From UHGV virus genome UHGV-0179428: 64,000 nt of DNA; one strand, written 5' to 3'. Every line of letters begins with the position of its first letter. Position 1 is the stretch's first letter. The notes beneath the pieces are model-generated. The model was not told where the DNA came from. It ran no database searches and saw nothing but the letters and a program-made list of their open reading frames with translations. This DNA comes from a virus. This document shows positions 54,302 to 59,526 of the stretch, piece by piece. The position numbers and the translations under genes were made by a program.

Positions 54302-55084
54302 TTAAACACGTGAACCGTATATTGCACCTACTGCGTCCCATCTTGGCGCATTACCAGTAACAGCTTTACCAGCTGCTCCGCCGTTATATTCTGTACCGTT
54401 ACCTTGAGTATTACATCTTCCTCCAGCAGCACCGACATTACCACCCGAACCGCCTGTATATGCACTAAGAGACCCCTCACCAACAGATCCTCTACCAGGA
54501 GCGGAAATAGTACCAGCAGCTGCACCGGAACTCATATGAGAGGAAGACCCACCAGCACCGAATGGGCGACCACCGCCACCACCAAATATTAGTCTACCCC
54601 TGTTACCGCCACCACCGCCGCCACCGCCTCCGGCAATAGCGCCACGGTTGGTTATACGCAGTCTGTTTCCTATTCCGTTCTGTATTGCGGTTCCACCTGC
54701 ACCGCCTGGTGAGTTAGAACCGCCGTTGCCTCCTCTGCCGTATACTGTAACCCCAGGATTGATGATGAGGGTAATATACGAATTTGGAAGATTGCTAGGG
54801 AATTCTAAACAAGGAACCGTGCTACTATGGGACACTAAATCCCCCGTAATAGTCACAACGACAGCAGTAGAGCCTAAAGAACGTAAATAGTTAATAAGCG
54901 TATCTTTATTGTAATTGTGATTAGCCCCGATCGAATACTGAACCTCTTTTGATTTTCCCGCCAATTGCGACATCCAGCCTGGAACCGGCACACCAAGTGT
55001 GCGCATCGCGCCAGACATCCATTCGTTACCAGCTTCAGCTTTTGCTGAAGAACCAATCCAACCACCTACGCCGACAACTGCCAT
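54302..55084 (-). CDS. Gly-rich protein with poly-Gly tract
   Basis: ORF track; start ATG overlaps fibre stop (TAATG); GGGGGGGGG and GGxGG runs. Confidence 0.7.
   Translation of the reverse strand: MAVVGVGGWIGSSAKAEAGNEWMSGAMRTLGVPVPGWMSQLAGKSKEVQYSIGANHNYNKDTLINYLRSLGSTAVVVTITGDLVSHSSTVPCLEFPSNLPNSYITLIINPGVTVYGRGGNGGSNSPGGAGGTAIQNGIGNRLRITNRGAIAGGGGGGGGGNRGRLIFGGGGGRPFGAGGSSSHMSSGAAAGTISAPGRGSVGEGSLSAYTGGSGGNVGAAGGRCNTQGNGTEYNGGAAGKAVTGNAPRWDAVGAIYGSRV
54571..54640 (-). repeat. GGN-codon simple repeat encoding poly-glycine
   Basis: ccgccaccaccgccgccaccgcc-type run on plus strand inside the Gly-rich gene. Confidence 0.7.
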
Positions 55085-58000: not shown

Positions 58001-59526
58001 CCATTAGTTCCGTTCCACGCACCTGACAACATACGGTTGTACACGTTACCATTACGGCAGGTAAAACGTTGCGCTCCACTGTAGTTGCCCGCTTTATACA
58101 CTTCCAGATAACCGACTGCACCGTCTTCTGGGAAGTGTTTTGCCATCGACGCATTGGTTGATGTCGACTTGGACCATGTTCCTGTGTAATTAGCATCTGG
58201 AGCAAATGTGTTAATATCAGCATCTACAGGCATTTCGCCACGGAAACGCAGATAGGTATCAGGAGATAGGCCGATATTGCGAGCAAAGGTTTCTTTATTG
58301 GGGATATCGGCACCGTTAGAATTTTTCTGTAATGCGCCGTTTGCTTTATCAACGGTGGGTTTCAAACCCAGGAAGTTAATGATATCCGCAGTTGACCCTT
58401 TCGCTAACAAGGATCTGGCAGTTTCTGTAAAATCGGTTAACTCGACTTTATTAGAGCCCGTGAAATACAGGAGTTTGTTTGCTGCACTTGTAACCGCAGC
58501 GATTGCGGTGAGTAACGGACTGAGAGGTTGTTTCTGAGCAAGCTCCTCAGTGATCGTTGTTGCGAAGTTAGGGTCATTACCTAACGCCTCTGCTAATTCC
58601 GCTAAGGTATTTAACGTCTCGGGTGAGGAACCAACCAATTCAGCAATCGCGTCACGCACCCAGGACGTTGTGGAGATGCTCGTGTCATTCGAGTCCTTCG
58701 GCGGTTTTGGTGTTGTCGGTTTACCCGTAAAATTCGGCGAATGTTTATTGGCTTTTAACTGTAATTCGTCGTTCAGCTGTTTAACAGTGGACGGCGTGGC
58801 AGCCTCCGTCACGGATTCGCTAGTCAGGGTATCGTTAAGTTTAACAATACCTTTACCGGTTGTAGTAGCGTCAACTAAGCCTTGGGCGGCGATTTTCTCC
58901 GCACGTAGGGCAGCTGACTCCGAACGCGTAGCTGCCCCTTCTGAGCTTTCTTTATCTTTCGCGACCTGTGCAGCAATCTTCTCCACTGCACCTTTACTGG
59001 CCTCAACTGAAGCCGCAGTATTTTCAACGCTGGTAGCCGCCTGTTGAACTTGTCCGGCCTGTTGCGTAACCGTTTCTGCTTTCTTAGTTACATCAGCCGC
59101 CGTAGCCGTCACAGATTGTTCGGATGTGGCGACAGCTTGAGCCTTCTCATTTACTGATTGTGAAACAGTATCTACGGCAGTTTTCGCTGCTAAAACCTCA
59201 GCGTGTTTTTTGTTAACCTCCGCAGTTTTAGTGGCAACGGTTCCCGCTTGCTCATTAACTGTGGAAGCTAACGTGTCAGTTTGTTGCTTCGCGGTTTCCG
59301 CTAAATTTTTTGCTTGCGCAGCTTCTGTTGCAGACTGTTGTGATTTGGCCGCAGCCGTTTGTGCATCAGCAACCGCGTTTCTGACGGTGTCAATGTCCGC
59401 AACGATTTCGCGGACGGGTAACTTATAATCTTTTTCGTCTTTCGAAAAAAGTAAAACGCCTTCGCCGATATCCCCGGTGTATGGACGCAAATCGTGTAAA
59501 CGAATTTTCTTTACCGCTTTAGCCAT
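55084..59526 (-). CDS. long tail fibre with Phage_fiber_2-type repeats and C-terminal self-cleaving intramolecular chaperone (S74-like) domain
   Basis: ORF track 55084-59586; ATG at 59526 (MAKAVKK); six GN..T.GNAATATKLQTAR.IGGV.FDG repeats; C-terminal ...SDRRNKRNL...GLIAQDALEALPELV... resembles the endosialidase-chaperone autoproteolytic domain; N-terminal Ala/Gln/Thr-rich coiled coil. Confidence 0.8.
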   Translation of the reverse strand: MAKAVKKIRLHDLRPYTGDIGEGVLLFSKDEKDYKLPVREIVADIDTVRNAVADAQTAAAKSQQSATEAAQAKNLAETAKQQTDTLASTVNEQAGTVATKTAEVNKKHAEVLAAKTAVDTVSQSVNEKAQAVATSEQSVTATAADVTKKAETVTQQAGQVQQAATSVENTAASVEASKGAVEKIAAQVAKDKESSEGAATRSESAALRAEKIAAQGLVDATTTGKGIVKLNDTLTSESVTEAATPSTVKQLNDELQLKANKHSPNFTGKPTTPKPPKDSNDTSISTTSWVRDAIAELVGSSPETLNTLAELAEALGNDPNFATTITEELAQKQPLSPLLTAIAAVTSAANKLLYFTGSNKVELTDFTETARSLLAKGSTADIINFLGLKPTVDKANGALQKNSNGADIPNKETFARNIGLSPDTYLRFRGEMPVDADINTFAPDANYTGTWSKSTSTNASMAKHFPEDGAVGYLEVYKAGNYSGAQRFTCRNGNVYNRMLSGAWNGTNGPWSPWRMVTTGVRPLSTSIDLNSLGGAEHMGNWRNSSSSLAVFDRHYPEEGGNAQGVLEVMEGGLYGRLQRYTTRHGTMYVRGLTATWDSSNPQWEDWIQVGYQVDGAYYKGSFNDLTKPGRFSVTGEATDSPLTDSAGATLLGVCEVTLRLDGSGVEQNYTTYGTGATSKGRKFQRIRTGNAWSEWREIFTSYSLPLTLGIGGVAAKVDPLDWQTFDFVPGQMISTPLNTMKNIPAGMDWGVIDGNLVTILVGASEDTGTGRSMLVWRGTVSTANYRFFAVRVAGEKGKRTITSRQMPVLNAAHTWAEKQTFAKGLSGELTGNASTATKLKTARLIGGVSFDGSGDISLPGVNQQGNQNTSGNAGTATKLQTARNINGVKFDGSRDININTLVGRGRVTALTGSNKGTPGIQMYEVYNNGYPTAYGNLLHLGGSTALGEGELLIGWSGTSGAHAPVYIRSRRDTADAPWSDWAQVYTARDSIPGVNATGNQDTTGNAATATKLKTARRIGGVTFDGTGDINLPGVNQQGNQNTTGNAATATKLQTARKIGGVLFDGTKDVNLPGVNQTGNQSTTGNAATATKLQTARNIGGVAFDGTKDISLPGVNQTGNQATTGNAATATKLQTARTINGIAFDGTRNISLGPADIGCPASPSGWLETGKDGGAITTAQLVTLLKNNGAFTTRSWVARCAWAYAASASIPHSETGCGVIPLAGAVIEVISNGNSTNNYTIRITTATTASVGGALTNAEFIYVFNGDTYSPGWRRAYNTRNKPTAAEVGALPSGGGTIGGDLTVNGKLATKYPDFRIAYGTYGFILRNDGANTYFLVTDAGQAAAGSWNGLRPLSFNNSNGQVNFGHNVTGNGNGSFNDVQIRSDRRNKRNLVKLDKALDRLELLTGYLYEIQHPDDGWQTSVGLIAQDALEALPELVSEDDDAISGEKRLRLNYNGVIALLVEGMKALRQEVNEIKGRS
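56060..56560 (-). repeat. tandem in-frame repeats (about 111 bp each) encoding tail-fibre repeat units
   Basis: Four or more near-identical units visible in the DNA and as GNQ.TTGNAATATKLQTAR.IGGV.FDGTKD..LPGVNQ in the protein; two more copies at about 56830-57050. Confidence 0.8.

Follow-up and report, generated by a model that had tools for sequence, protein, structure and literature searches.

A mosaic tail fibre with a predicted self-cleaving chaperone and two adjacent gp38-type adhesin genes in a probable Seoulvirus-like jumbo phage

The window analysed here, a 64,000-nucleotide (nt) stretch of the virus genome UHGV-0179428, carries a tail fibre gene at 55084..59526 on the minus strand, which is the strand of all genes, fibre segments and hairpins of the window described below unless stated otherwise. 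The gene encodes 1480 amino acids (aa) followed by a stop codon and was identified from the list of open reading frames (ORFs), the gene call on the contig and matches to PHROG tail-fibre families (best E-value 2e-287). The ORF itself spans 55084..59586, and position 59526 is its second in-frame ATG. This ATG is the better start, because a 1480-aa product is also what the publicly available gene call reports for the source contig (ENA ERZ1034818 NODE_4, 144,860 bp) and the first ca. 45 aa align with the N-termini of paralogous fibre-like proteins. Plus-strand ORFs within the gene (e.g., 56198..56527) were rejected as antisense shadows of the repeats. Two adhesin genes lie downstream: a gp38-type adhesin of 260 aa (54302..55084), whose start overlaps the fibre stop codon, and a second, short gp38_N-type adhesin of 167 aa (53782..54285).

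At its N-terminus, the fibre would begin with a short attachment module, followed by a coiled coil of 180 residues, a single Phage_fiber_2 unit and four knobs. Next would come the six 40-aa repeats, with a fifth knob between their two blocks, then a globular domain that is hypervariable, a tip of beta-structure and, at the C-terminus, a chaperone of 97 residues. We interpret this protein as a mosaic homotrimer, probably the long fibre with which a Seoulvirus-like jumbo phage binds its receptor, with the trimeric state taken from homology, and assign this explanation as a whole a probability of about 0.75. The original prediction for this locus was right about the gene, its repeats and its chaperone, but it missed the two downstream gp38 adhesins, the knobs and the hypervariable domain.

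The C-terminal segment (aa 1384–1480; 55087..55377) was assigned to the intramolecular chaperone/Peptidase_S74 type on the basis of Pfam, alignment and fold. Pfam Peptidase_S74 (PF13884) covers aa 1384–1438 with 39.9 bits against a curated cut-off of 22. The motif NDVQIRSDRRNKRNL at aa 1378–1392 contains a Ser-Lys dyad, S1384 and K1389, in i/i+5 spacing, with the Lys five residues past the scissile Ser. The sequence NDVQIRSDRR(N/S)KRNLV was read in all of the 120 full-length relatives listed, which are 81%–95% identical and keep the dyad, and an alignment of 20 sequences, which included relatives of as little as 29% identity, showed no change in the Ser, Asp and Lys of SDxRxK. Both the S74/chaperone match and the dyad, on which the earlier proposal of a self-cleaving C-terminal chaperone depended, are present, and that proposal stands, with cleavage itself predicted.

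Comparison with solved structures and with proteins whose cleavage has been shown by experiment (S16 gp37, GA-1 and MyRF/endoNF) pointed in the same direction. In a phmmer search, the last 140 residues (aa 1339–1478 aligned) matched the distal fragment of S16 gp37 (PDB 6f45_A; E 2.6e-12 when the entire fibre was the query), pairing FNDVQIRSDRRNKRN with CRDLNVSSDRRIKKD. A chaperone profile, for which 23 relatives with identities as low as 33% were used, found four PDB entries: 6f45_A (E 9e-34), the tail fibre 8jov, the MyRF ICA domain 7dc3 and the GA-1 chaperone 3gud. S1384 and K1389 align with S587 and K592 of MyRF, and S1384 with the cleaved Ser of S16 gp37. In 3gud, the released GA-1 chaperone, the first residues SDERHK align with SDRRNK of the window, so that S1384 corresponds to residue 1. 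The two MyRF residues are equivalent to S911 and K916 of the endosialidase endoNF and form a Ser-Lys dyad, and a YxY aromatic pair lines the cleavage centre in MyRF (PMC8326128); this pair is also aligned in the window chaperone. An AlphaFold2 (AF2) model of the last 131 residues, computed as a monomer, had a predicted local distance difference test (pLDDT) score of ≥ 88 over residues 40–130 and showed beta strands followed by a helix (residues 106–130). Foldseek matched this model to the MyRF ICA domain 7dc3 (probability 1.0, template modelling (TM) score 0.57) and to the K1F endosialidase chaperone 3gw6 (up to 0.94). The characteristic ICA fold, a beta ‘donut’ with a C-terminal helix that forms a trimeric coiled coil, thus appears to be present in the model. 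S16 gp37 ends in an intramolecular chaperone of 113 residues, which is released by self-cleavage between the two serines of DLNVS^SDRRIKK, and the corresponding sequence of fPS phages is DVYIR^SDGRLKI, for which R^S cleavage has been predicted (PMC7917993). Set against these sites, the DVQIR^SDRRNK of the window leads to a predicted cleavage at R1383|S1384 and a 97-aa fragment. Most likely, the end domain helps the fibre to fold and then cuts itself off.

The segment preceding the predicted cleavage site is a distal trimerisation region and tip (aa 1296–1383; 55378..55641), which ends in GNGSFNDVQIR and is predicted to become the gp38 docking end after cleavage. It was recognised from the Pfam family Gp34_trimer (aa 1256–1355) and from PDB matches to the tip of S16 gp37, to T4 gp34 and to Mu S. 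An E. coli relative whose chaperone is just 36% identical still has the tip motif FNDV(Q/Y)IR (GNGNFNDVYIR^SD). The 260-aa adhesin matches Pfam GP38 (PF05268, E 5e-70) and Gp38_N (PF21721) and aligns end to end with S16 gp38 (6f45_D, E 1.4e-49) and PP01 gp38. W9, W22 and W37 of its attachment domain align with the S16 tryptophans, and the poly-Gly run and sandwich are kept. In S16, the gp38 tryptophans insert into pockets on the gp37 face (PMC6851490), and this docking face is exposed upon departure of the chaperone (PMC7917993). The fibre TAA overlaps the adhesin ATG (TAATG), the Shine-Dalgarno-like sequence AAAGGAAGA lies ahead of it, and the 260-aa adhesin gene is probably translationally coupled to the fibre gene. 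The 167-aa adhesin matches Pfam Gp38_N (E 3.5e-20) and PHROG 1121 ‘tail fiber adhesin’ (E 2e-45); it has the N-terminal attachment domain in common with the 260-aa adhesin and a different, short distal part. The gene order fibre, gp38, second gp38_N protein and DUF7941 was kept in all related loci fetched. Given that the gp38 genes are adjacent or apparently coupled to the fibre gene and that the tip motif is kept, the tip is probably of the T2/S16 gp37–gp38 type and its cleavage would have a purpose beyond folding, which the two downstream adhesin genes would explain.

According to this model, the chaperone domains would trimerise and nucleate folding of the tip. Once the trimer has formed, Ser1384, activated by Lys1389, would cut the R1383|S1384 bond and the chaperone would depart. 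The new C-terminal face (...FNDVQIR) would then be capped by one gp38-type monomer through its three-Trp N-terminal domain, as in S16 and T2. Either of the two adhesins could cap the tip, as they have the same N-terminus with a different distal domain, and the capping adhesin would bind an outer-membrane receptor. We infer the docking as a 3:1 complex, the choice between adhesins and the receptor. Among adhesins with a receptor assigned in PMC12032242, the nearest are those of FL12 and FL20 (68%–69% identical), which use OmpA, and those of PaulHMueller, RB49 and JSE have a higher identity (76%–79%) and no receptor assignment in that study (PMC12032242). OmpA may thus offer a lead to the receptor.

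The proximal two thirds of the fibre are composed differently. The N-terminal module of ca. 45 aa (aa 1–45; 59392..59526) is presumed to be the virion-attachment end, and it resembles other fibre-like proteins of the phage group, with 34% identity over 41 aa to a 206-aa protein at 52558..53178 and 51% identity over 51–53 aa to a 153-aa protein of a 222-kb relative from E. coli. It is followed by a heptad coiled coil rich in Ala, Thr, Val and Gln (aa 46–225; 58852..59391), in which these residues account for 25%, 13%, 11% and 9%, respectively, and Pro and Gly together for 3%. Its hydrophobicity has a 3.5-residue period with a power of 120, compared with 8 in shuffled sequences, a value reached by none of 1000 shuffles, and there were weak matches to Rad50/SMC coiled coils. 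The Ala/Gln/Thr-rich N-terminal coiled coil that had been proposed from inspection of the sequence is therefore real. A single Phage_fiber_2 repeat (Pfam PF03406, E 6.6e-10, 38.9 bits against a cut-off of 22) occupies aa 221–261 (58744..58866).

Further along, four pyocin-knob-type domains (K1–K4) of ca. 85 aa each are arranged in tandem at aa 436–830 (57037..58221), as indicated by internal similarity (K1 against K2, z = 25 by Smith-Waterman comparison with shuffles), by homologues named ‘pyocin knob domain-containing protein’ in the source databases, and by structure prediction. The AF2 model of this region, a multi-domain monomer, had a pLDDT of 79.5, and Foldseek matched it to the R1 and R2 pyocin fibres (6cl5 and 6cl6) with a probability of 1.0 and a low global TM score, the latter because the model is a multi-domain monomer. 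A knob-like insert (K5, aa 911–1003; 56518..56796) lies between the two blocks of repeats and is similar to K2 (z = 5.9, reached by none of 300 shuffles). The fibre accordingly contains four to five pyocin-knob-type domains. A hypervariable globular domain related to the phage Mu S/S' fibre (aa 1164–1295; 55642..56037) follows the repeats and matches residues 207–341 of PDB 8ju3 (Mu S/S'). It is the most variable part of the protein, with 15%–40% identity among relatives that are otherwise 85%–100% identical. Close relatives carry at least three variants of it that are unrelated to one another, some with a 50-aa insert after aa 1292; clustering of this domain over the 120 relatives was partial, the anchor motif being absent in 54 of them. 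Pfam and NCBIfam held no model for the 40-aa repeat, the knob region or the hypervariable domain.

The repeats form two blocks: units 1 and 2 (aa 831–870 and 871–910; 56797..57036), and units 3–6 (aa 1004–1043, 1044–1083, 1084–1123 and 1124–1163; 56038..56517), a tandem array of variable copy number. Both blocks were delimited by the motif TATKLxTAR, which occurs six times in the fibre (starting at aa 836, 876, 1009, 1049, 1089 and 1129), and by in-register copies. The two-plus-four arrangement of six repeats described previously agrees with these positions, with a 93-residue gap after unit 2, but the period given then (ca. 37 aa or 111 bp) was wrong: a repeat finder and Tandem Repeats Finder both gave exactly 40 aa or 120 nt. 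The six copies can be traced in the DNA at in-register spacings of 120, 120, 120, 399 and 120 nt, so the earlier statement that they are visible at the DNA level holds in this sense. They are, however, only weakly visible, as the units are 47%–74% identical in nucleotides (50%–88% in protein), with a longest in-register exact run of 11 nt, and Tandem Repeats Finder detected merely 2.2–2.3 copies of period 120. Phage_fiber_2, named earlier as a Pfam family to check, does not describe the six repeats, since the sole PF03406 stretch is that at aa 221–261 and the four-unit array scanned alone gave no PF03406 match at E-values up to 10.

The 40-aa unit is widespread, occurring in P1/P7 Sv', Goslar (‘tail fiber repeat protein’), SSU5, 9g and Shewanella phage Spp001, as well as in Acinetobacter, Aeromonas and cyanophage fibres. 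Units of the first five and of others share the pattern GNAATATKLxTARxIxGVxFDGxxDI with those of the window fibre and are 60%–79% identical to them, and in Goslar, too, four or more units form a collinear array. Compared with these known carriers, the window fibre is distinguished by documented copy-number polymorphism within one phage lineage. A search of the PDB found no solved structure of the unit. A phmmer match of the array to designed ‘Cake’ beta-propellers (whole-sequence E ca. 5e-6) was rejected as chance because every single stretch had E > 2 and merely two 40-residue periodicities were in step. The repeats of T4 gp34 and gp12 were likewise rejected as the same unit: full-length gp34 in the PDB matches just aa 1293–1369, and the published gp34 repeat has a conserved Ser/Thr-Pro (PMC5537660) that is absent from the 40-aa units of the window fibre. 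We propose that the tandem units act as spacers in the shaft.

Among the 120 listed relatives, the tandem array contains four, three or two units, and protein lengths differ in steps of 40. Pairwise alignments revealed deletions of exactly 40 or 80 residues, always in register. In a two-unit relative, the DNA junction fuses the first 24–29 nt of unit 4 to unit 6 within the conserved core ACTAAGTTGCAAACCGC, and in a three-unit relative the switch falls within ca. 5 nt near the end of unit 4/5; both mapped junctions involve ca. 5–15 nt of microhomology. At least four junction types were distinguished (3-4-6, 3-5-6, 3-[4/6] and [3/5]-6), indicating that the copy-number events are recurrent. Near-identical neighbouring units were found in none of the relatives examined, and hence no recent duplication or expansion was seen. 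Synonymous divergence (dS) between units is saturated, nonsynonymous divergence (dN) is just 0.09–0.22, and dS between orthologous units is 0.27–0.37; together with the collinear array of Goslar, these values suggest that the array is old and held by selection. The copy-number variants therefore look like contractions through short microhomology, with in-register loss between units. In some relatives, the last unit is also the boundary of a swap of the downstream domain. Conserved motifs serve as exchange points in T-even fibres, to which this boundary can be likened. If this reading of the variants is correct, the shaft offers a clear case from nature of a structural protein that has lost repeats in register by way of short microhomology.

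These junctions bear on another explanation, in which the repeats are hot spots of active homologous (RecA-type) recombination that expands and contracts the fibre. The original prediction had considered the repeats potential sites of recombinational expansion or contraction, and the part concerning contraction holds, as copy number varies among close relatives between four, three and two and always in register. Expansion was not seen, and the junctions lie in short microhomology rather than long homology. RecA-type hot spots are thus unlikely, considering that the units share ≤ 11 nt of exact in-register identity and 47%–74% overall, that the mapped junctions fall in ca. 5–15 nt, that the lack of near-identical neighbours in the relatives examined leaves no sign of recent duplication, and that dS between units is saturated. 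Several observations weigh against the proposed working of the tip. Cleavage, the trimeric state and adhesin attachment are all derived from homology, and the structure models show single chains of a protein that is trimeric. The scissile bond follows an Arg in the window fibre and a Ser in S16, and R^S cleavage in the fPS phages is itself a prediction. With cleavage deduced in this way from sequence, fold and homology, the C-terminal domain might instead be a degenerate, non-cleaving relic kept on the mature fibre. We regard this as very improbable: the Ser, Asp and Lys of SDxRxK are invariant, the YxY pair is aligned, the Pfam score and the fold match are both good, and a domain that stayed on would obstruct the face at which gp38 docks.

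Docking of the 167-aa adhesin is less certain than that of the 260-aa adhesin because its third attachment-domain Trp is replaced by Met and it has no solved homologue. A further point on the same side is that the hypervariable domain (aa 1164–1295) could be a receptor-binding site itself, in which case gp38 would not necessarily be the sole determinant of host range. Carried to its end, this would mean that the chaperone is cleaved but that the fibre binds the receptor through aa 1164–1295 or through its bare tip, as in T5 pb1 or Mu S, while the gp38-like proteins serve another fibre or assembly. The high variability of this domain among relatives and its homology to the Mu S/S' receptor-binding fibre would fit such an arrangement, as would the presence of at least one further fibre-like protein in the cassette. 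Still, we consider it quite unlikely, since the 260-aa protein has the full length and the docking tryptophans of an S16/T2-type adhesin, its gene appears translationally coupled to the fibre gene and always comes next after it, and the fibre tip is homologous to the gp38-docking tip of S16 gp37. A cleaved, adhesin-capped tip thus remains the preferred explanation.

The closest known system is gp37 with gp38 in Straboviridae such as T2, T6 and S16 (PDB 6F45). The window fibre resembles it in the C-terminal SDxRxK chaperone, the homologous tip before the cleavage site, the gp38 gene directly downstream, the three-Trp attachment domain and the poly-Gly sandwich. In contrast to these phages, the genome in the window is probably that of a Seoulvirus-like jumbo phage and not of a T-even one, a single 1480-aa protein replaces the gp34–gp37 chain, and the proximal two thirds of the fibre consist of modules of the P1 S, Mu S and pyocin types; Arg rather than Ser precedes the scissile bond, and there are two adhesin genes. 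More distantly, the chaperones of the K1F endosialidase, GA-1 and T5 pb1 and the MyRF ICA domain share the fold, the Ser-Lys pair in i/i+5 spacing and the position after a trimeric beta-structure. In K1F, GA-1 and T5 pb1, cleavage merely releases the mature spike or fibre, whereas the window fibre is predicted, like that of S16, to gain a docking face for an adhesin.

The best matches of the distal fibre (aa 825–1479; 57%–73% identity) were found in SSU5-like phage-plasmids (Escherichia phage CMS-2020a and Cyrano) and in Shiga toxin (Stx) phages (P13374). The same group supplied the best matches of the 260-aa and 167-aa adhesins, with 81% and 64% identity, respectively, and T-even phages were also among the best matches for the distal fibre and the adhesins. 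The module therefore already circulates outside Straboviridae. In contrast to the SSU5-like and Stx phages, the N-terminal half of the window fibre and its genomic context are unrelated, and there is no match at the megablast level. The distal fibre and adhesin module was probably acquired horizontally.

The assignment of the host genome to a Seoulvirus-like jumbo phage is suggested by a 3.1-kb stretch of the window with 72% nucleotide identity to Salmonella SPFM/Seoulvirus jumbo phages and by the occurrence of relatives. This stretch, which holds radical SAM genes (34379..37529, plus strand), is the sole megablast link of any length to isolated phages for positions 30000–54000 of the window. 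Relatives of the fibre occur on contigs of ca. 220–225 kb from Salmonella, E. coli and Shigella assemblies, and two complete genomes, those of E. coli 98232 and Enterobacter ludwigii (NZ_CP173450.1 and NZ_CP134650.1), list the lineage as a circular ‘plasmid’ of 222 kb. It matches the description of ‘persistent’ Seoul-like jumbo phages (bioRxiv 10.1101/2024.12.31.630880). A megablast search of the fibre gene against phage records gave no match, close relatives being found solely in assemblies and metagenomes, and at the megablast level the lineage was not found in the phage collection. The isolated Seoulvirus SPFM19 has no such fibre in the stretch from 92 to 128 kb. A 725-aa protein of SPFM19 (90547..92724) is annotated ‘tail fiber adhesin Gp38’; going by this annotation, the Gly-rich gp38 domain may also occur in this phage group as part of a larger fusion protein.

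The fibre design, with a self-cleaving chaperone and a gp38 cap, is already known and involves no new mechanism, and the current understanding of how such fibres work is unchanged; what is new is the host lineage. The points of modest interest are the mapped natural polymorphism in repeat number, the pair of alternative adhesins and this lineage, a Seoulvirus-like jumbo phage whose fibre seems to have been fitted with a T2/S16-type design. Phages of that group are now known to persist in clinical isolates of Salmonella and E. coli without being noticed. Handles on host range could come from the two exchangeable adhesins, the predicted cleavage site, the hypervariable domain and the natural differences in shaft length of one or two 40-aa units. 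As a speculative extension that we consider rather unlikely, the fibre may be a two-level host-range device of persistent jumbo phages, in which recurrent loss of shaft units and swapping of the hypervariable domain tune length and lateral binding, and two caps compete for the cleaved tip and give virions with mixed tips. Such a device would allow tuning to the thickness or type of the host surface layer and would explain the presence of one lineage in Salmonella, E. coli, Shigella and Enterobacter.

The fibre gene belongs to a six-gene cassette (DUF7941, fibre, two adhesins, DUF7941 and the 206-aa fibre-like protein) bracketed by two strong terminator-like hairpins. The upstream hairpin (60322..60353) has a 13-bp stem with nine GC pairs and a T-run, and the one closing the cassette (52524..52552) has a 13-bp stem with eight GC pairs and a T-run. 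A scan for sigma-70-like promoters showed no enrichment, with nine found against 11.7 expected. A DUF7941 virion structural protein (59725..60324; Pfam DUF7941, PHROG 2935) lies directly upstream of the fibre, a position kept in relatives, and a second DUF7941 gene (53175..53735), also assigned by Pfam and PHROG, precedes the gene of the 206-aa fibre-like protein (52558..53178), which was recognised by its N-terminal similarity to the fibre. A third paralogue is located at 43684..44532. Two of the DUF7941 genes are each directly upstream of a fibre-like gene starting with the same ca. 45-aa module, which suggests a repeated adaptor-plus-fibre cassette. Relatives insert a pair of genes for 153-aa and 1001-aa proteins at the same place (NZ_CP173450.1, 9713..13180, our locus L002). 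In SPFM19, a 1005-aa structural protein, a Phi92_gp140-like protein and a 177-aa protein resemble the trio of DUF7941, 153-aa and 1001-aa proteins of the relatives in order and size. In one relative (locus L005, 9438..10203), the 206-aa protein is replaced by one of 707 aa that carries SASA (sialate O-acetylesterase-like) and DUF6645 domains, so the second fibre slot is also exchangeable.

Immediately upstream of the cassette lies a gene for a small DUF488-N3a protein (60378..60752), and its position is kept in three relatives (loci L001, L005 and L006). Short parts of the window also have counterparts of 95%–99% identity in a few records of phages, plasmids and E. coli, which rank low by coverage. 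Elsewhere in the window, three very large consecutive ORFs of 1440, 1394 and 1728 aa occupy 18122..31920 on the plus strand.

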